Source of the DNA: Acidimicrobiia bacterium | GTDB lineage: Bacteria > Actinomycetota > Acidimicrobiia > Spongiisociales > ZC4RG35 | Direction: 5' to 3' | DNA: 64,000 nt | Assembly (NCBI GenBank): GCA_965220995.1 | Contig: OZ244856.1 | Location: forward strand, 514,928 to 578,927 | In this document: positions 15,525 through 60,077 of the stretch, in pieces | How positions within the stretch are numbered: the stretch's first letter is position 1 | Layout of the letters: each line of letters begins with the position of its first letter | Translations under genes and position numbers: made by a program | Notes under the pieces: model-generated | The model's input: the letters and a program-made list of their open reading frames with translations, nothing else | What the model was told of the DNA's origin: nothing | Databases searched by the model: none

Positions 15525-18500
15525 CAGGAAACATACGGTACCAATTCGCCTCGGTGACCCGTCCGTCCACCGGGGTCACCCCGTTGCGACGCTTCCAATA
15601 CTTGGTATTCCGATCCGTATCGTCGTCGAATTCCCCGGTTACCGCGATATTCGCCCCCGGCACGTTGGCATTCAAAGCTTCCTGCCATCTTCTAACCAGC
15701 GGACCGGAGTCGTCCTTTTGCAACGGAAAGGAAGTGGCGATAACCGACCCGTCATCTCCGCCGGGAGGACTCCCTTCGGGGAACATACGGTCCCATGCCG
15801 CTTGAGTGACTCGGCCGCTGGCGGCGATCCCCTCATGCCGCTGCCAAGACTTGGTATACCTGACCGTGTCATCGCCGAACACTCCGTCAACCTCGATGTT
15901 CGCCCCCTGCACGTTGGCATTCAAAGCGATCTGCCACACCTGCACCCGCGGTCCCTCATCCCCTTCCTCCAACAACACCGATGACCAGCGGGCAACGTTG
16001 GTGGCGCCGGAAGAGCCGCCCGAGAACATCTCCCGCCAATCGTCGGCGTCCACTATCCCACTGACCGCCAGCCCGTTGTCACGCTGCCAGTTGCGGGTGG
16101 CCCGCTCGGTCTGAGGGCCGAAACTTCCATCGGCCGTCACCCCCACAGCCCGTTGCCAGGTCACGACATCGGCCCCCCGCGACCCCCTCCTCAAGGGTTG
16201 GCCGGGATAGGCGGGCGTCGGTGCGGCAACGTTTTCCTCCCGGCTGCCGACATCGGTGGAACTCGGTTGGCGCGTCCCGGCGCCGGCAAACATCCGGCCC
16301 CACGATTCCGCGTCGACCGTCCCGTCAGCCGTCAGACCCTGTTGGTACTGCCACGCCTTGGTGGCCACCAAAGTGGCGGGCCCAAAGTCGCCGTCCGGCG
16401 CGATCCCCAGCGCGCGCTGCCACACGATCACGTCCATACCTTGAGAACCCACCCGGAGCGGGGTTCCCGGATAGGAGGGGACGTTTCCATCCGATCCGTT
16501 CCCGTCTCCGCCCGAATCCGAACTCCCATTCTTGTCAGGCGGAGTAGCGGGCTGCTCCACACCTGCACCGGGAAACATGGTCTGCCAACTCTCCAAACCC
16601 ACTACCCCGTCGGGGTTCAGCCCATTTCGTTCCTGCCATTGCCGGGTGGCCCGGGCGGTGGCGGCCCCGAAGTATCCGTCCGCCCTCACCCCCAGCGCGG
16701 CCTGCCAGGTTCTCACCCACTTGCCCTGGCTTCCCACCCTCAGCAAAAAGCCCGGGTAGCTGGGAACGCCCGAATCGGTGGTCGGGCTCTGGGGTTGGGT
16801 TCCCGCCTCCGGTTCCGGGTCGGGCGCCGGTTCCGGGTCGGGATCGGATTCGGGTTCCGGCGGGCTCGCGAACATCTTGTTCCAGGACTGCTCCCCCACG
16901 ATCCCGTCGGGGTTCAAGCCGTTCTCCTCCTGCCACAGGCGGGTGGCGGCGGCGGTGGCCGGGCCGAAGTCCCCATCGGCGGTCACTCCCAAGGCCTCCT
17001 GCCACAAACGAACCGGTTCCCCCCTGCTTCCCTGCCGCAACGGCGCCCCCGGGTAAGGTTGCTCGGCGATCACCACCCGGGGAGAAGTGGCGGCCGATGG
17101 TGGGCCGTCGCCTACCTGGTTGGTGGCCATCACCGTAAAGCTGTAGTCCACTCCCCTTCGCAGACCCGTGACAACCGCTTCGGTTTGAGATCCCTCCACC
17201 ACCACCGGATCGACATGGGCGGGAGTAACGGTCACCGTGTACCTCCCCGGATCGAACCGGGCGGGAACCGGATCCCAACGCACCGTGGCCGCCGTTCCGC
17301 CGGTCACAGTCACGCCGGTCGGAGCGGGCGGCGGCGACCAACCGGGCGCCAAGTAGTCGATCACGAAATACCTGGATCGCAACCGCAGGGACGATTTGAT
17401 AGTGGAGGCGGAGACCCGTTCGGTGACCCGGGTTCCCCCCCGGATGCCGACGATCTTCACGTGTTCGGCGCTGCCCCACGGGTAGGGAACCGTGCTCACC
17501 GACACCACCTCGGAGAACCGGCCCTCCAGGTTGAAGATCTCAAGCAGGTCTGCCAGAGAAACGGTCTTCGACCAATAGGCGCCCGGATTGACCGCCGGAT
17601 CAATCGACCAGGGGTCCCGCACCGACACCAGGTAGGGTCGTCCCGCCGTGCCCCACAACGTCGAAGAGTCTTCCGTGGCGCCTCCGCTGGAGGCGGAATA
17701 GAAGGCCTGCACCACCGTTTCCGATTCCTGGGGATGGGTGATCACCATGCCGGCCGTGGGTCGGGCGCCCACCGTCGCCCACCGACCATCCGCCTGGATT
17801 TCTCGATTCCATCCGGCATACACCTGATCACGCGAATCACTCAGAACATGACACCAGCACGACGAACGACGGGCACTGCTCAGAGACGGTCCCGAACCGC
17901 GGCGCAGCATGCCGTAGATCGCATAGGAACGGGCGGCGATGGCCTGGGCCCGGAGGGCCGCATCGGGCCATCCGGCGGGAACCTCGGCGATTCCCGCCAC
18001 GTAGTCCTCGATATCCAATTGCATAGAAAAATGGATGCGGTTCCCACTGGGACGCAACCGGACATTTCCGTGGGCGAACTCGGTCATGTTGGACCCATAT
18101 CTGAGGCCCTCCAAGCCCACCCGGTTGGCGGGCGTCAGACCCTGGATGCTCAGGTGGCACTCGGTGGCGGTTCCCACCAGGTTGGTTGAACAGGACCCTC
18201 CTCCGGCGGCGGTCACCGCAAGCCGCTCCCCGGCGTCCAGGTAGTAGGCCCCGGCACATTCGGGCAAGCCGCTGTCAGAAAGCAACGCCTCCCAGGTGCT
18301 GCTTCCCACCGCCCCATCCGCCTGCAGGCCCTGGTCGGCCTGAAAAGACCTCACCGCGTCCCGCACGGTCCCGTCGAATCCACCGGGAACCGATTGCAGA
18401 TATCCCAGTTCCACCAATCTGGTCAGCACGACATCGGTGAAGGTGTTGTCCCGTTCCAGGGTTTTTCCCTCCACCAGCACGGGATAGGAGTCGTAGTCCC

Positions 18501-19122
18501 CATCAAAGCAGACTCTGACCTGCCCGGCGGTCACCACAAACGTCAGGTCCGAACGGTTCTGTCTGATCCCCACCCAGATTGGCATGGGTTCGGTCACCAC
18601 CCACGAGCCGGGAAGGGCCGAAGCCAGACTCTGCACCGACGTCCCTTGATAGAAGTGTTCCAGGATCTGAACCTGGTTATAGCCCTCGATCGCCATACCC
18701 AGGGCCCCGAACTGGGTCAGCCCCACTCCATGTCCATGGCCGGCCCCATCAATAGTGATCTGCACCCGGTCGGCGTTGACCGCGGCATTCGGGAACATCA
18801 CCCTCCAGGAGGCGGGGCCCACGATCCCGTCACCCACCAGACCATTGGCTACCTGCCACCGGATGGTCGCCGCCCTGGTCTGTTCCCCGAAAGCGCCGTC
18901 TGCGCTGATGCCCAACGCCTCCTGCCACACCCGGACCGCCTCTCCCCGGCTGCCCAACCGCAGCGGTTCTCCCGGATATTCCTGCGCCGCCACCGGGATG
19001 ATGGTGGTGGATACCAGGAGGGCCACTCCCAGTGCCGCCACCAGGCGAGGCAAGCGGCGCCTACGGGTTTTCTTTCTGTGGTTTCTCAAGTTAAAGCCCA
19101 ACAATGCTCGAACAGGCGCCAA
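15514..19122 (-). CDS. Large secreted cell-wall protein: SpoIID/LytB domain, FN3-like domain and 6 or more peptidoglycan-binding (PG_binding_1) repeats
   Basis: Signal peptide. Reiterated LRxGSxGxxVxxWQxALGxxADGxFG modules. SpoIID-like block YVAGIAEVPAGWPDAALRAQAIAARSYA. Confidence 0.75.
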   Translation of the reverse strand: MAPVRALLGFNLRNHRKKTRRRRLPRLVAALGVALLVSTTIIPVAAQEYPGEPLRLGSRGEAVRVWQEALGISADGAFGEQTRAATIRWQVANGLVGDGIVGPASWRVMFPNAAVNADRVQITIDGAGHGHGVGLTQFGALGMAIEGYNQVQILEHFYQGTSVQSLASALPGSWVVTEPMPIWVGIRQNRSDLTFVVTAGQVRVCFDGDYDSYPVLVEGKTLERDNTFTDVVLTRLVELGYLQSVPGGFDGTVRDAVRSFQADQGLQADGAVGSSTWEALLSDSGLPECAGAYYLDAGERLAVTAAGGGSCSTNLVGTATECHLSIQGLTPANRVGLEGLRYGSNMTEFAHGNVRLRPSGNRIHFSMQLDIEDYVAGIAEVPAGWPDAALRAQAIAARSYAIYGMLRRGSGPSLSSARRSSCWCHVLSDSRDQVYAGWNREIQADGRWATVGARPTAGMVITHPQESETVVQAFYSASSGGATEDSSTLWGTAGRPYLVSVRDPWSIDPAVNPGAYWSKTVSLADLLEIFNLEGRFSEVVSVSTVPYPWGSAEHVKIVGIRGGTRVTERVSASTIKSSLRLRSRYFVIDYLAPGWSPPPAPTGVTVTGGTAATVRWDPVPARFDPGRYTVTVTPAHVDPVVVEGSQTEAVVTGLRRGVDYSFTVMATNQVGDGPPSAATSPRVVIAEQPYPGAPLRQGSRGEPVRLWQEALGVTADGDFGPATAAATRLWQEENGLNPDGIVGEQSWNKMFASPPEPESDPDPEPAPDPEPEAGTQPQSPTTDSGVPSYPGFLLRVGSQGKWVRTWQAALGVRADGYFGAATARATRQWQERNGLNPDGVVGLESWQTMFPGAGVEQPATPPDKNGSSDSGGDGNGSDGNVPSYPGTPLRVGSQGMDVIVWQRALGIAPDGDFGPATLVATKAWQYQQGLTADGTVDAESWGRMFAGAGTRQPSSTDVGSREENVAAPTPAYPGQPLRRGSRGADVVTWQRAVGVTADGSFGPQTERATRNWQRDNGLAVSGIVDADDWREMFSGGSSGATNVARWSSVLLEEGDEGPRVQVWQIALNANVQGANIEVDGVFGDDTVRYTKSWQRHEGIAASGRVTQAAWDRMFPEGSPPGGDDGSVIATSFPLQKDDSGPLVRRWQEALNANVPGANIAVTGEFDDDTDRNTKYWKRRNGVTPVDGRVTEANWYRMFPDER

Positions 19123-27716: not shown

Positions 27717-28325
27717 ATGACCCTTTTCACCCCGCATCATGAAGTGCTGGCTGCCCGGTTGCACCGGCCCTCCGCCGCCCTGTCCTCGGCCACGGTGTGG
27801 GTGATGCAGGTGACCGGGTTCGCCCTGTTGACCGCCCTCTTCGCCCAGTTCACCATCCGTCTCCCCTTCACTCCGGTGCCGATCACCGGCCAAACCTTTG
27901 CGGTGCTCCTTTCCGGCGCCGCCCTGGGGATGTGGGCGGGGGGCGCCAGCCAGATTCTCTACCTGCTGCTGGGCACTTTCCTGCCGTTCTACGCCAACGG
28001 CGCTTCGGGGACCGAAGTGCTGTTCGGGGCCACCGGCGGGTACCTGTTCGGGTTCGTGGTGGCTGCCGCGGTGGTGGGCAGGCTGGCGGAGCGCCACCAC
28101 GACCGGCGAGTGATCTCGGCGGTGACCGCGTTTTTGACCGGCAGTCTGCTGATCTACGTTTTCGGGGTGATCGGGCTGATGGCCGCCGCCGACATGGACC
28201 TGGTTACCGCCCTGGAACTGGGGGTGGCGCCCTTCATCCTGGGCGATGTGGTGAAAGCCTACGCGGCCGGCCTGCTGCTCCCAGCCGCCTGGCGTCTTAC
28301 CAGACGCAACTCCCAGGAGGTCTAA
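27717..28325 (+). CDS. bioY: BioY-family biotin transporter (ECF S-component-like)
   Basis: PFTPVPITGQTFAVLLSGAALG...GTFLPFYANGASG...GATGGYLFGF core. AAGGAG RBS 7 nt upstream. Start trimmed from the ORF track. Confidence 0.8.
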   Translation: MTLFTPHHEVLAARLHRPSAALSSATVWVMQVTGFALLTALFAQFTIRLPFTPVPITGQTFAVLLSGAALGMWAGGASQILYLLLGTFLPFYANGASGTEVLFGATGGYLFGFVVAAAVVGRLAERHHDRRVISAVTAFLTGSLLIYVFGVIGLMAAADMDLVTALELGVAPFILGDVVKAYAAGLLLPAAWRLTRRNSQEV

Positions 28326-28564
28326 TGGGAACACGAACACACATCTCCAAGTGGGGTTCCAGTCTGGCGGTCCGAATCCCCAAGGCGATAGCAGACCAAT
28401 GGGGTGTGCGAGAAGGCTCACCAATTGAGATAGCGCCTCGCGGAGACCGAATCGTTCTGCGAAGAACCCCTAACGATCTGGACCGCATGTTGGAACTGAT
28501 GACCGAAGACAACTTCCATGCCGACCAGGACTTCGGCCCTCCTCAAGGGGTCGAAGCCTGGTAG
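28325..28564 (+). CDS. AbrB/MazE-family (SpoVT-AbrB fold) antitoxin-like small protein; no toxin partner found
   Basis: MGTRTHISKWGSSLAVRIPKAIADQWGVREGSPIEIAPRGDRIVLRR is a typical MazE/AbrB swapped-hairpin domain. The start overlaps the bioY stop (TAATG). GGAGG RBS. Confidence 0.7.
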   Translation: MGTRTHISKWGSSLAVRIPKAIADQWGVREGSPIEIAPRGDRIVLRRTPNDLDRMLELMTEDNFHADQDFGPPQGVEAW

Positions 28565-28611
28565 GACTCGCCAGGAGGGGAAGTCACCTACAGCTCAACT
28601 GCTACTGACAT

Positions 28612-28892
28612 AGAGCCTGCGCGATGGATTATTGGGGAAGGTCGCGAAAAACAGGGTGGCCGAGTGCTTGACTTTGTCTCCCGGGTGACACATAGTGATA
28701 GGAGTCAAGCACCTCCCGGTCTGTTCCGACGTCGACCAGACCGGCCGCAGGGACCATATTGTCGGGAAAGCGAATCCCGTTCTGCGTGACGGTTTCGCGT
28801 CCCGACCCCAGGAAAGGTGGTGGCGGGGGAGGGTCCCTCGGGACAGAAATTTTCGGGGCGTTTTCGCGAGACAGTGTTTGATTTCACAAGTT
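28612..28892. repeat. Interspersed repeat, copy A (~281 bp), near-identical to 59702-59985; terminal inverted repeats CGCGAAAAACAG, internal hairpins and a sigma70-like promoter
   Basis: By-eye alignment to copy B gives ~85-90% identity, with indels that break any reading frame. TIR-L gtcgcgaaaaacagg and TIR-R cgttttcgcgag. 10-bp stem gtgcttgact...agtcaagcac encloses TTGACT-17nt-CATAGT. Second hairpin ccggtctg...cagaccgg. Confidence 0.8.
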
Positions 28893-28986
28893 CTCTTTGC
28901 CTCCCAACCCGCTATCTCTCCAAAGCTCATCTGCCACTGACACAAGAGTCAGCCCCGGCCTCTCTGGGATCGGGAGGTTCTCAGAC

Positions 28987-30643: not shown

Positions 30644-32080
30644 TCAGGAGAGCTTGTAGCAAGCCTCCTCGAATACGTAATCGGCCGCGATCGGATGGGT
30701 GTAGGCCCGCTCGATCACCCGGATGCCGGTGGGAGAGGTACCGGCCGCCAGAGCCTCCGGATCGGGACGATTGATCCAGATCTGGCGCTGGAGACGCTCG
30801 TTGGCGCTCCCGACATAGCTCTCGCTGGGAGCGAGGCCGCGGAAGTCGATCTCCTCGATGCTCTTGGCCGCCGCCAGGACTCCGCCCTGGGTCAGATCGC
30901 CGTTCTCATAGGCGATATTCAGAGCCTCATGAAGGATCATGGCCTCGACGAATCCCTCCACCACGTAGTCGATGAGGGGAACCTCCGGGGCATATGTGGC
31001 CATCAGTTCCCTGAGGAACTCCGTACCGGGGTTGTCCTCGATGATCGGCGAGAAGTAGATGGTCGTGTAGAAGTCGCGGGCGATGGCGTCCTTGATGGGG
31101 GAATCGGGCGCCACCAAGGCCTGGCTCCACACCGGAGCAGCCCCCGACCAGCGGGCCTCAAAGCCCTGGGAGATGGCCGCACCGTAAACCTCGGTGAGGG
31201 TGGCGGCGTTGGCCGTGACCCACACTATGTCGGCGCCGCTCTGGGCAATGGCATTGCCGATCGGAGCATTGTCCTGTCCGGGAATCACCGCCCCCGAACC
31301 GTCGTACACCACATCGATGCCCAGGGTTTGGGCCGCGATCTTGGCGCCTTCGGCCGAGTCCAGTCCGTAGTCACCGGGGAAGGAGGCGACCGCCAGGGTG
31401 GGACTTGCCACACCGTCGGCCACCGCCAGATCGTGCAGGTAACCGATCATGTTCATTGCCTCTATGCAGTAAGGCGTTCCATGGGAGAGGAGGTTGGCGT
31501 TCAACGCCGGGTCCGACCAGCCCGAGTACCAGGTGAGGGGAATGGCCAGGATGCCATCCTCTTCCAGGTTCTCCCGGATGGCCACGGTGTGCGGCGACCC
31601 GGTGGAATGGCCGAAGGCCACCACCTCGTCCTTCAATTCCTCGTAGAACTGAACATGATTGTCCACCGAATAGACGGTGTCCCGGTACTCCAACTCCACG
31701 GTCAACCCGTGGATACCGCCATGGGCGTTCACGTCCGCCCAATAAGCGTTGGCGCCGGCCACCACCAATCCCACCAGACCTCCGAAAGCGCCGGTCAGAT
31801 CGGAGAGCATTCCCACCTTGATGACGCCGGCATCGAGATCAACCCCGATGTCGGTGGCGACCATCATGTCCATGGGCTCATCCTCTTCCATCGGCTCCTC
31901 TTCCTCCATGGGCTCCTCTTCGGGAGCGGCCGTGGTGGCAGGAGCCGCCGTGGTGGTGGGAGCCGCCGTGGTGGTGGGAGCCGCCGTGGTGGCGGGTTCC
32001 GCGTCGTCGTCTCCGCCGCAGGAGGCTGCGATCAGGGCCACTGCCATGACCATGGCCAACCATTTGAATTTACTCTTCAT
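30644..32080 (-). CDS. Branched-chain amino-acid-type ABC substrate-binding lipoprotein (Thr/Ala/Pro and acidic linker)
   Basis: Lipobox LIAASCGG. ATTAAPTTTAAP and EEEPMEEEEPMEED low-complexity. Type-I periplasmic binding fold. Confidence 0.8.
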   Translation of the reverse strand: MKSKFKWLAMVMAVALIAASCGGDDDAEPATTAAPTTTAAPTTTAAPATTAAPEEEPMEEEEPMEEDEPMDMMVATDIGVDLDAGVIKVGMLSDLTGAFGGLVGLVVAGANAYWADVNAHGGIHGLTVELEYRDTVYSVDNHVQFYEELKDEVVAFGHSTGSPHTVAIRENLEEDGILAIPLTWYSGWSDPALNANLLSHGTPYCIEAMNMIGYLHDLAVADGVASPTLAVASFPGDYGLDSAEGAKIAAQTLGIDVVYDGSGAVIPGQDNAPIGNAIAQSGADIVWVTANAATLTEVYGAAISQGFEARWSGAAPVWSQALVAPDSPIKDAIARDFYTTIYFSPIIEDNPGTEFLRELMATYAPEVPLIDYVVEGFVEAMILHEALNIAYENGDLTQGGVLAAAKSIEEIDFRGLAPSESYVGSANERLQRQIWINRPDPEALAAGTSPTGIRVIERAYTHPIAADYVFEEACYKLS

Positions 32081-50360: not shown

Positions 50361-50429
50361 AAGTCGCGAAAACCCACGGACAGGCGGTGGCGGGGGAGGG
50401 CAACCCGAAAGGGGAGAAATTCGCGACTT
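50361..50429. repeat. Mini-copy (~70 bp) of the repeat family: perfect 10-bp terminal inverted repeats aagtcgcgaa / ttcgcgactt around the conserved GGTGGCGGGGGAGGG core
   Basis: Shares TIR sequence (GTCGCGAAAAC) and core (ggtggcgggggaggg...gaaat) with copies A and B. Lies in the gap between the HNH gene and the dapA-like gene. Confidence 0.6.
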
Positions 50430-50542
50430 TTGCGACTCTCTGGCGAGAACCTACTAAGACTCATTATGGATTCGGCGACCCACAGCCCCAGTCGCCGGCT
50501 CCGGAACATTGCCGTGCTTCCGCCGGTTATCATCGAATCCTG

Positions 50543-57986: not shown

Positions 57987-59702
57987 GGGGTGATGGCCGC
58001 CGGACATCCCCTGACGTCGGTGGCCGGGATGCAAATGCTCCTTTCGGGAGGAAACGCCTTCGATGCGGTGGTGGCCGGACTGTTCGCGGCGGCGGTGGTG
58101 GAACCGACTGCGGCCTTCTCTCTGGCGGCGGAGAGCGTGTTCATGATCTACGACTCCCGCACCGGAGACCTCCGTTCTGTGAGCGGACAGGGCGTGGCCC
58201 CCGCCAGAGCCACCGTAGACTTCTACCGGTCGGCCGGTCTCGATTCGATTCCCACCGGTCCGGGCCGAATGGCGCCTTTGTCGTTCACCGTTCCCGGCGC
58301 GGCCCACGCCGCCATCGCCCTGCTCGACCGATACGGCGCCAAGAGTCTGAGCGAGGTGCTTGAACCGGCCATCAGGTACGCGGCGCAAGGCATCCCCCAC
58401 TACCGCCCCATGCTTGATTTCCTGCGCCAAGAGGCCACCCTCGCCCAGTTCAAACTCTTTCCCCACGGCGGGTCGGAGGTCTTTTATTCCGGAGACCGGA
58501 TACCAGAGCCCGGGTCCCTGCTGGTGCAACCCGGCCTGGCCGGAACCCTCCGAGCCATGGCTTCGGCCGAGCAGGCCTGTTCGGGAGGGCGGTCGGAAGC
58601 CCTGGGAGCGGCAAGCGACGAGTTCTACCTCGGACGGATCGCCCGATTGATCGCCGATTCCTCGGCAGGTGTGGGGGGAGTATTGGACTATGAAGACCTG
58701 ACCACCTATCGATCCCGCTTCGAGACCCCGCTGTCATGCCGTTATGGGGGATACGAAATTTTTGGCCAAGGGACCTGGTCGCAGGCGGCGGTCCTGTTTC
58801 AGGCTCTGAACATCCTCCGGCATTTCGATCTCGGGGCCATGGGACACAACACCCCCGCCTACATCCATACGGTCACCGAGGCCCTGAAGCTCTCCCTGGC
58901 CGACCGTCAGGCTTACTACGGCGACCCCGGCCATGCCGAGGCGCCGGTGGAGGAACTCCTGTCAAGGGAATACGGAACCGCTCGGGCCAGTTTGATCGAC
59001 CCGGCCCGCGCCTTTCCCCAAATGCCTCCGCCGGGTGACCCCTGGACCCTCTCGCCGTCGGCGGGGCGATACATCGATCCGGTGGTCTGCGCCTCGCCCC
59101 CCAATGTCTCACCCTTGCCTGACACCGGCACCACTCATGTGGCCGCCATCGATCAGCATGGCAACCTGGCGGCCGCCACTCCCAGCGGCGGGTCCTTTGA
59201 GAAGTCGGTGTATTTCGGGGAACTCGGATGCGCTCTCAGCACCCGCATCGAGGTTTTCAATCTTTCCCCGGGCCACCCCAATGTCATCAAACCCGGCAAG
59301 AGCCCCCGGACCACTTTGGTCAACTACATAGTGGCCGAAGGGGGCGTCCCCCTGATGACCTTCGGCTGCCCCGGGGGAGATCATCAGACCCAGGCCAATC
59401 TTCAACTCATGCTGAACACCTTCATCTTCGGGATGAACCCGCAGGAAGCGGTGGAAGCGCCCCGGTTCGCCACCGACAGCACTCCGGACTCGTTCTATCC
59501 GCATCGGTACTTCCCGGGCCGACTATCCCTGGAAGCGGCCTTCCCGGATGGCACCGCGGAGGCCCTGGCCGGTCTCGGTCACCGGGTGGTCAGATCCGAA
59601 GCCTGCGGCATGGGGGCCATCATCACCCGCTCCGATCCTGTGTCCGGGGTGGTGTGCGCCGGCGCCGATCCGAGACGGCCCACCTACGCGCTGGGATGGT
59701 AA
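57987..59702 (+). CDS. Gamma-glutamyltransferase family protein (no signal peptide)
   Basis: GGT large- and small-subunit blocks. Autoprocessing Thr in DTGTTHVAAIDQHGN. Start trimmed to MAAGHPL; the ORF-track start at 57828 adds a non-signal extension. Confidence 0.8.
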   Translation, partial: GVMAAGHPLTSVAGMQMLLSGGNAFDAVVAGLFAAAVVEPTAAFSLAAESVFMIYDSRTGDLRSVSGQGVAPARATVDFYRSAGLDSIPTGPGRMAPLSFTVPGAAHAAIALLDRYGAKSLSEVLEPAIRYAAQGIPHYRPMLDFLRQEATLAQFKLFPHGGSEVFYSGDRIPEPGSLLVQPGLAGTLRAMASAEQACSGGRSEALGAASDEFYLGRIARLIADSSAGVGGVLDYEDLTTYRSRFETPLSCRYGGYEIFGQGTWSQAAVLFQALNILRHFDLGAMGHNTPAYIHTVTEALKLSLADRQAYYGDPGHAEAPVEELLSREYGTARASLIDPARAFPQMPPPGDPWTLSPSAGRYIDPVVCASPPNVSPLPDTGTTHVAAIDQHGNLAAATPSGGSFEKSVYFGELGCALSTRIEVFNLSPGHPNVIKPGKSPRTTLVNYIVAEGGVPLMTFGCPGGDHQTQANLQLMLNTFIFGMNPQEAVEAPRFATDSTPDSFYPHRYFPGRLSLEAAFPDGTAEALAGLGHRVVRSEACGMGAIITRSDPVSGVVCAGADPRRPTYALGW

Positions 59703-59985
59703 GAGCCTGCGCGGTTGGGTTTTGGGGGGGTCGCGAAAAACAGGATGGCCGATGGCTTGACTTTGTCTCCGGGGTGACACATAGTGATAGGAGTCAAGCA
59801 CCTCCCGGTCTGTTCAGACGTCGACCAGACCGGCCGCAGGGATCACAATTTTCGGGAAAGCGAAATCCTCGTTCTGCGTGGTGGATTCGCGTCCCGACCC
59901 CAGGAAAGGTGGTGGCGGGGGAGGGTCCCGCGGGGACAGGAATTTCGGGGCTGTTTTCGCGAAATAGCGTCAGATTTCACAAGTT
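59702..59985. repeat. Interspersed repeat, copy B (~284 bp), beginning at the GGT stop codon; same TIRs, promoter-like hairpin and core as copy A
   Basis: Aligns with 28612-28892 over its whole length. TIR-L gtcgcgaaaaacagg, TIR-R ctgttttcgcgaaat. TTGACT-17-CATAGT inside an 8-bp stem. Confidence 0.8.
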
Positions 59986-60077
59986 TCGCCGCCCGAACCC
60001 CTCCCTCTATACCAATCCGTAAAGCCGGTGGGCGGGGGACCGGTTGCTCCTCGGTGAATTTCTGAGGAGCGCCTGAC

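Follow-up and report, generated by a model that had tools for sequence, protein, structure and literature searches.

Introduction

Correia elements (NEMIS) of Neisseria and the ERIC/IRU sequences of enterobacteria are non-coding intergenic repeats of 100–300 bp that fold into hairpins. Correia elements carry functional promoter elements and protein-binding sites; they have near-perfect terminal inverted repeats (TIRs) of 26 bp and a TA duplication. ERIC is a single imperfect palindrome of 127 bp. The LDR and QUAD/Sib sequences of E. coli are multicopy intergenic repeats that proved to be RNA or toxin-antitoxin loci, and guide RNAs of mobile elements include the HEARO/omega RNA of IscB and the bridge RNA of IS110. 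Elements of the IS200/IS605-type PATE class have no TIRs, carry similar subterminal hairpins and are inserted 3′ of a fixed tetra- or pentanucleotide with no duplication. Here we describe a family of interspersed repeats, 308–325 bp long across copies, two of which (copies A and B) lie in a 64,000-nucleotide stretch of an Acidimicrobiia bacterium (contig OZ244856.1, positions 514,928 to 578,927; the window). With moderate confidence, the repeats are explained as a lineage-restricted, non-autonomous family resembling miniature inverted-repeat transposable elements (MITEs), possibly derived from the IS5 family of insertion sequences (IS), with an interior that is homogenised or constrained.

The nearest documented pattern of ends and target is that of IS1237/ISLxx6 of Leifsonia xyli. 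IS1237, an actinobacterial member of the IS5 family, has inverted repeats starting GAGGTGG and GAGATGG and a TTA (TAA) duplication, and a three-nucleotide insertion site has been described as typical of the IS1031 group (PMC2516522). How the repeats of the window compare with this and with the other systems is given below, beside the features concerned.

Copies and extent of the repeat family

A note made from the letters of the window (the original prediction) had placed two homologous repeat copies 31 kb apart. Comparison of 28591–28920 with 59702–59985 by BLASTN gave 89.2% identity over 286 bp and, together with the MAFFT alignment, confirmed the pair. A core 23-mer occurs exactly twice in the window, where 0.00 occurrences are expected, and the shared start of both copies, AGAGCCTGCGCG, is as predicted. 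The boundaries of the element were taken as the points where the alignment of nine copies breaks off. Homology starts at (T)TA/GAGCCTGCGCGG and stops at ...CCCCTACCCGCTATCCCTC/TAA; its loss is sharp at both ends and the flanking genes are not entered. Copy A is 308 bp long, from the terminal GAG to the terminal CTC (28613–28920, + strand; the nhmmer family profile covers 28608–28929). Copy B (winB) is 317 bp long (59703–60019, + strand; nhmmer covers 59699–60021) and has an atypical right end with about 5 extra nt. The right boundary of the original prediction was about 30 bp short, since the right-hand homology runs to 28920 and 60019 in the alignment of the nine copies.

Further copies were reached through a spurious minus-strand open reading frame (ORF) of 86 aa in copy A, which had been gene-called in the assembly of a near-identical strain (ENA ERZ25072299 contig_6, 99.06% identical over 20.8 kb). 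The counterpart of copy A in this strain is L002. With this ORF as bait, eight such 'proteins' were found among 5.8 billion clusters. Two more came from an exhaustive HMMER search of 1.84 billion representatives, which besides element copies returned only two unrelated repetitive proteins. The fetched loci gave six further full-length copies (L004, L005, L006, L007, L008 and L009), and four more were seen solely through their ORFs (P0003, P0007, P0008 and P0014). The family size is thus at least 12 copies per genome (8 sequenced and 4 ORF-inferred), and about 80 kb of one contig holds four of them. The eight genome copies referred to below are A, B and L004–L009.

Nine-member sets add one distant relative, L074. 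At least 120 metagenome loci carry the internal repeat pair of the element (see later section), and among the matches listed a profile search identified one true relative, L074 (LXNI01013161.1), which is full length (E = 2e-35, about 60% identity) and lies on an unrelated metagenome contig. The other 119 listed loci yielded no further distant relative. Because L074 sits in a different contig between unrelated genes, the lineage spread goes beyond one species.

No named family was matched. Rfam 15 gave 0 matches in the window at the gathering threshold, and with E up to 10 the best sub-threshold match in copy A was a plant microRNA model (E = 1.9). At the L005, L008 and L074 copies, Rfam likewise had no match over the element. 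The scan of viral contigs and a distant BLASTN against plasmids and phages found no match, nor did the metagenome scan with an invariant 21-mer. With an exact 20-mer, the sole match in the genome collection was a chance one inside a Mycobacterium P450 gene. The family is previously undescribed, as had been suspected from the two copies.

Alternatively, an intergenic fragment might simply have been duplicated within the 64-kb region (segmental duplication), and the window itself shows only two copies. The ends are sharp and lie outside the flanking genes, however, and the finding of at least ten further copies elsewhere and one in another organism excludes it; this alternative, refuted by copy count, retains practically no probability.

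Coding potential

The sole recurrent ORF of the element is on the minus strand (MVPAAGL(V/D)DVGTDREVLDSYHYVSP.RQSQA...PVFRD) and is gene-called at 53–165 aa in several copies. It is open in 7/8 genome copies, and gene callers have annotated it in public assemblies, as expected if the element were a small protein gene read from the minus strand. Several observations speak against such a gene. In copy B the ORF has an in-frame TGA and its ATG is absent. The 24 variable sites of the ORF are distributed 11/6/7 over codon positions 1/2/3, and nearly all of them alter the amino acid. The position of the stop, hence the length of the protein and its C-terminus, differs in every copy, and the frame is not kept in L074. 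The ORF has no Pfam domain, and no homologue beyond the element copies was found among the 1.84 billion representatives. A minus-strand protein gene is already largely refuted by these results and is very improbable.

All other frames are disrupted by indels between copies; copies A and B differ by 1–2 nt indels that shift every reading frame (MAFFT). No conserved short ORF with coding-type substitutions, of the kind seen in type I toxin-antitoxin or small-protein repeats (LDR/Sib-like), was present. The element does not code for protein, and the proteins of the ORF track are artefacts, as the original prediction had held on account of the frameshifting indels. The repeats are thus shorter than the roughly 600 bp that bounds MITEs, have no conserved ORF and are dispersed in multiple copies in unrelated contexts, as MITEs are.

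Termini and flanking sequences

Alignment of the nine copies revealed apparent, imperfect TIRs at the true ends of the element. In copy A, the left TIR is at 28613–28638 (+ strand; family consensus GAGCCTGCGCGGGTAGGTGATTGGGG) and the right TIR at 28895–28920 (- strand; reverse-complemented family consensus GAGGGATAGCGGGTAGGGGCCGGGCG). The two end consensuses match in register at 16/26 positions, including a 9-nt run, GCGGGTAGG; composition-preserving shuffles reach 16/26 and a 9-nt run in 460 and 30 of 100000 trials, respectively. The terminal pattern is GAG-N5-GCGGGTAGG, and GCGGGTAGG begins 8 nt inward of each end. At both ends of L074 the motif carries the identical G-to-A change (GCGGGTAAG and GCGGGAAAG), which is what co-evolving transposase-binding ends would do. 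GAG is the consensus start of both ends, as in IS5-type elements. On the left it is found in 5/9 copies (L074 has GAA, L008 GGG), and on the right the reverse-complemented end is GAG or GAC in 4/9 and mostly CAG or AAG otherwise.

The bases just outside the element follow a T-N-A pattern, despite the host being a GC-rich, WhiB-encoding actinobacterium. On the left, all nine copies have A at -1 and six of the nine have T at -3; on the right, T is at +1 and A at +3, each in 8/9. Copy A is flanked by ATA on the left (28610–28612), a candidate target or duplication at the T-N-A position, and by CAA, a degenerate T-N-A, on the right (28921–28923). The flanks of copy B are both TAA (59700–59702 and 60020–60022), an exact 3-bp direct repeat, and the left one doubles as the stop codon of the gamma-glutamyltranspeptidase gene (ggt). 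The right flanks other than that of copy A read TAA, TTA, TAA, TGA, TAA, TGA, TTA and TCG. Exact 3-bp direct repeats are present in 3/9 copies, namely copy B (TAA), L005 (TTA) and L074 (TTA). Long target-site duplications are not general, copy A being the only copy with a flanking repeat.

This repeat at copy A is a 19-bp direct repeat, AGCTCA(A/T)CTGC(T/C)ACTGACA, at 28592–28610 and 28924–28942, just outside the T-N-A flanks (0.02 expected). In L002 a 12-mer within it is perfect and the left flank of L009 is similar; the other copies are without it.

Like IS1237, whose inverted repeats read GAGGTGGTTTCAG.../GAGATGG..., the element has termini that start with GAG and flanks of TTA/TAA type. 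Beyond GAG, its ends have no sequence similarity to those of IS1237. The element also resembles the MITEs derived from the IS5 family (IS1031/IS427 groups) in being small, multicopy, intergenic and devoid of a transposase gene. It differs from them in that its TIRs are weak (16/26) and its least conserved part, the 3-bp repeat at the flanks is exact in 3/9 copies, no parent IS was found in about 150 kb, and the interior, also in L074, is far more conserved than expected.

The newly recognised terminal repeats and T-N-A flanks strengthen the MITE-like reading, and it is because of this pattern of ends and flanks that a transposase of the IS5 family (IS1031/IS427-type) is proposed. A DDE transposase of this type (DDE_Tnp_1) that recognises the ends would cut and paste the copies in trans, inserting them at TWA/TNA sites and duplicating 3 bp.

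Several observations weigh against this explanation. The TIR match is limited to 16/26, and single copies deviate from it. The termini are the least conserved parts (17/20 and 16/18 columns vary in the eight copies) while the interior is near-invariant, the opposite of the pattern expected of a simple active MITE. The middle base of T-N-A is equal on the two sides in 3/9 copies, which is near chance given the fixed T and A, and a 3-bp duplication is therefore not demonstrated. No transposase gene with matching ends, and no partner IS, was present in about 150 kb of this genome. The 19-bp repeat at copy A may represent a target motif or a local duplication, or else a longer form of the end. In addition, the conservation of the interior in L074 and two compensatory base pairs (see next section) suggest a function beyond transposition.

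Conserved elements of the interior

The sequences TCGCGAAAA and TTTTCGCGA, which had been taken for the TIRs, form an inverted repeat inside the element. In copy A its arms are at 28642–28650 and 28861–28869, and in copy B at 59731–59739 and 59954–59962 (all + strand). The pair is indeed present, and is invariant in the nine aligned members including L074 and also in L002, with 98.8% of cells paired. Lying 29 nt in from the left end and about 51 nt in from the right end, it is subterminal and not terminal. The inverted-repeat architecture of the element is thus nested, and the subterminal arms may be internal protein-binding sites.

An inward-facing sigma70-like site, TTGACT-17-CATAGT, follows the left arm. 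The promoter scan located it at 28668–28696 in copy A and, with the same hexamers and spacing, at 59757–59785 in copy B (+ strand in both). The site matches at 9/12 positions in both copies, and shuffles of the same regions give 0.1 sites. Conservation of this internal site, anticipated in the original prediction, extends to 8/8 genome copies: the hexamers and the 17-nt spacing are kept (L008 has CATATT) and the spacer is variable. In L074, TTGACT is kept and the -10 sequence is CAGGCT. A promoter near the left end and reading inward is also what IS5-derived MITEs have, as for a transposase promoter. In the MITE-like explanation the site would, on the simplest view, have been kept from the parent IS, whose transposase promoter it would be. 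It may still be active, reading through hairpins 2 and 3, described below, and out of the right end.

The stem that had been noted around this site (hairpin 1, GCTTGACT...AGTCAAGC, 28666–28710, + strand) exists in copies A and B and is not conserved. It has mismatches in L008, L009 and L074 while TTGACT is intact. As the stem breaks in three copies and the -35 box persists, hairpin 1 was rejected as a selected feature.

Two other hairpins are conserved. Hairpin 2, CCGGTCTG-13 nt-CAGACCGG, is at 28716–28744 in copy A and 59805–59833 in copy B (+ strand); 98.6% of its cells are paired and L074 has one compensatory change, U-A to C-G, so the stem stands as predicted. Hairpin 3, absent from the original prediction, is the best-supported of all and every copy folds into it separately. 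It is located at 28762–28805 in copy A and 59852–59897 in copy B (+ strand) and has three tiers with a variable tip (TCGGGA-AA-GCGAA...TTCGC-G-TCCCGA). The tip has undergone substitutions and indels and is still paired, and L074 has a compensatory A-U to G-C change. The third hairpin that had originally been proposed, GGGTCCC..GGGAC, with a supposedly preserved stem, did not hold up. Its loop would be of 2 nt. At the U position the copies have T, A or G or lack the base, and yet the A proposed to pair with it is invariant.

Over the five helices, 96.9% of cells are paired, against 24–50% when the partners are slid. Two covarying pairs were found overall, a number reached by 7 of 500 shuffles. 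One pair is in hairpin 2 and one in hairpin 3, and the support is modest because both stem from a single divergent sequence, L074. One-sided changes in the stems, read on the + strand, are five G-U against one A-C, a weak hint of strand. The consensus fold compared with column shuffles gave z = -2.7 for the + strand and -3.0 for the minus strand; assignment of the strand from folding energy was rejected, the strands scoring alike. Folds of single copies are unremarkable (z = -1.4 and +0.4).

Two short, perfect palindromes are invariant in all copies including L074. CGACGTCG is in the loop of hairpin 2 (28726–28733), and each arm of the internal repeat contains TCGCGA (28642–28647 and 28864–28869). 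Both are candidate protein-binding or loop-loop contact sites.

Downstream of hairpin 3 is a near-invariant G-rich block, CCCAGGAAAGGTGGTGGCGGGGGAGGG (28807–28833, + strand), in which 4 of 40 alignment columns vary among the eight copies. In L074 the block has an identical 3′ part, GGTGGCGGGGGAGGG.CCCTCGGG, and a differing 5′ part. The stretch GGTGGTGGCGGGGGAGGG(T)CCCTCGGG (28816–28842) has several G-runs and could form a two-tetrad G-quadruplex on the + strand; the GGG runs of L074 suffice for three tetrads. A weak profile match to the G-rich block (E = 0.014) at 50372–50438 of the window is short, in a G-rich region and probably due to chance.

These features bring in the alternative of a multicopy gene for a structured small RNA. 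The RNA would be of about 200–230 nt, transcribed from the + strand, contain hairpins 2 and 3 and the G-rich block, and be the product under selection, for example as an antisense or regulatory RNA or as a guide-type RNA working with a protein of a mobile element. In its favour, all eight genome copies retain the hexamers and their spacing although the spacer itself varies, and the most invariant blocks follow the putative start. The relative of 60% identity retains hairpins 2 and 3 with two compensatory pairs (7/500 shuffles). Of the one-sided changes, five produce G-U on the + strand and one A-C; the stability of the consensus fold exceeds that of column shuffles (z = -2.7), and 6/8 copies would transcribe antisense into the convergent gene. 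However, the -10 sequence is not kept in L074 (CAGGCT), and the region upstream of the putative start is equally conserved, including the left arm, whose partner is far downstream. The minus-strand fold is equally good (z = -3.0), single-copy folds are ordinary (z = -1.4 and +0.4), and the covarying pairs are two, both from one sequence. No terminator-like site was found in the scanned copies A and B, and there is no Rfam match. We regard a small-RNA gene as unlikely, though it is the main rival. It is compatible with the MITE-like explanation, because the spread of the copies could still be by transposition.

The comparison with known RNA loci is similarly divided. LDR, QUAD/Sib and guide RNAs are repeated intergenic units of about 300 bp that each have a promoter and give a conserved, structured RNA, a pattern into which a small-RNA gene would fit. 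Unlike these, the element has no conserved small ORF and no match in Rfam, HEARO included. No gene for a nuclease or recombinase is consistently adjacent to the element, and one copy lies by a divergent gene with DUF222 and HNH domains.

In a stronger form of this idea, the invariant interior would be no passive relic and would encode the structured + strand RNA of about 200–230 nt, made from the conserved TTGACT-17-CATAGT site and under purifying selection in at least two distant actinobacterial lineages, the whole being a mobile, self-promoted non-coding RNA gene. The RNA might regulate in trans, for instance, or serve a transposase or nuclease encoded elsewhere as guide or scaffold, and variation at the tip of hairpin 3 would be either tolerated or the bearer of specificity. 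We consider this form decidedly unlikely.

Variation among the copies

The eight genome copies are 79–87% identical and the variation is very uneven. Alignment columns 101–140 and 201–240 are almost invariant, with 3 and 4 variable columns, respectively. In the four-gamete test, 185/351 informative site pairs fail. Between the window and L002, all 7 differences in copy A (5 substitutions and 2 indels) fall within 34 nt (28760–28793) in hairpin 3, the pairing of which is preserved. This patch looks like a short gene-conversion tract from another copy. The variation as a whole fits short-tract gene conversion that homogenises interiors better than edges, recurrent hits at unconstrained sites, or both. 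The interior is either under constraint or undergoing active homogenisation, and a plain MITE would not usually show this. In a MITE-like family, gene conversion among the copies, selection for the hairpins and binding sites, or both would keep the interior uniform.

Genomic context of the copies

Copy A is between genes for a MazE/AbrB-type protein (PF04014) and a LivG-type ABC ATPase, and copy B between those for gamma-glutamyltranspeptidase and an acyl-carrier-type PP-binding protein; these neighbours had been named correctly (MazE-like/LivG and ggt/acyl-carrier-type). The eight copies occupy unrelated gene contexts, in both orientations relative to their neighbours. The preference for gaps between convergent genes, proposed from two copies, was borne out in 5/8 copies of this genome lineage. 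In five copies, the stop codon of the co-directional upstream gene is at, or at most about 45 nt from, the left end; in copy B and L006, the flanking TAA or TGA is the stop codon itself. L005 occupies the recO–uppS spacer, antisense to both genes. L074 similarly occupies the spacer of two co-directional genes (short-chain dehydrogenase and CoA-transferase-like) and is antisense to both. Transcription from the internal site would run antisense to the gene downstream in 6/8 copies and sense in 2/8.

Such placement is also in keeping with a host structural or regulatory repeat, similar to REP/BIME or ERIC. This would be a palindromic intergenic unit that host proteins bind, or that insulates transcription or stabilises mRNA, and recombination, not a dedicated transposase, would have spread and homogenised it. 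The nested inverted-repeat architecture, the preference for gene 3′ ends and convergent gaps (5/8), the close abutment of copies to stop codons, the invariant palindromes TCGCGA and CGACGTCG, and the mosaic copies, consistent with gene conversion, all favour it. At about 310 bp, however, the element is far above the size of a REP unit and has long non-palindromic invariant blocks. Its defined ends and T-N-A flanks are typical of transposition, and a related copy is found in a different organism at a non-syntenic place. On balance a host repeat of this kind is rather improbable.

The described repeat classes lead to the same contrasts. REP/REPIN sequences are imperfect palindromes of 20–40 bp, often in inverted pairs and associated with an IS200-like RAYT gene, unlike the unit of about 310 bp with its long non-palindromic blocks. 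With Correia and ERIC elements the family shares being non-coding, interspersed, intergenic and hairpin-forming. It has no sequence relationship to them, and differs in its nested weak TIRs with a strong subterminal repeat and in its long non-palindromic invariant blocks. Unlike the IS200/IS605-type PATE, it has no hairpin in the first or last 50 nt, and T-N-A is on both sides.

Other features near the copies

A gene with DUF222 and an HNH endonuclease domain (REP13E12-type, known from actinobacteria; L008:3680–4795, - strand) is divergent to the copy at L008:4982–5308 and 185 bp from its left end. This arrangement occurs at 1/8 copies and is probably coincidental. Solitary MazE/AbrB-type (PF04014) genes without an obvious toxin partner are at 28325–28564 of the window and at L007:4550–4801. 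A MazE link between copies A and L007 was rejected, as the two proteins are distant paralogues (33% identity over 42 aa) on opposite sides of the element. A selenocysteine tRNA gene (RF01852, 76.5 bits; L005:2081–2172, - strand) is about 3 kb from the recO–uppS copy, from which the organism probably uses selenoproteins.

The window has further repeats of other kinds. Tandem 18-bp repeats (family D1) are present at 31922–32011 and 2415–2519. Those at 31922–32011 encode, on the minus strand, a linker rich in Thr, Ala and Pro (TTAAPTTTAAP...) that follows the signal peptide of a solute-binding lipoprotein of the branched-chain amino-acid type. Several direct repeats of 90–140 bp with 60–79% identity (D2, D4 and D6) at 15590–19000 are probably internal to a large repetitive coding region.

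Implications

At least 12 loci in these assemblies bear spurious 'hypothetical protein' calls (53–165 aa) deserving removal. The element family provides a marker with which strains of this uncultured lineage can be typed and recombination traced. Each copy could put an inward-reading promoter-like site beside the ends of essential genes such as acpP, recO/uppS and ftsY, often antisense to them, and copies may thereby influence the expression of neighbouring genes. For now the family counts as an ordinary find, MITE-like and new, whose interior is unusually constrained. If the interior were a selected RNA, the element would be a self-promoted non-coding RNA gene spreading as a transposable element, and of wider interest given the RNA-guided proteins of transposons.

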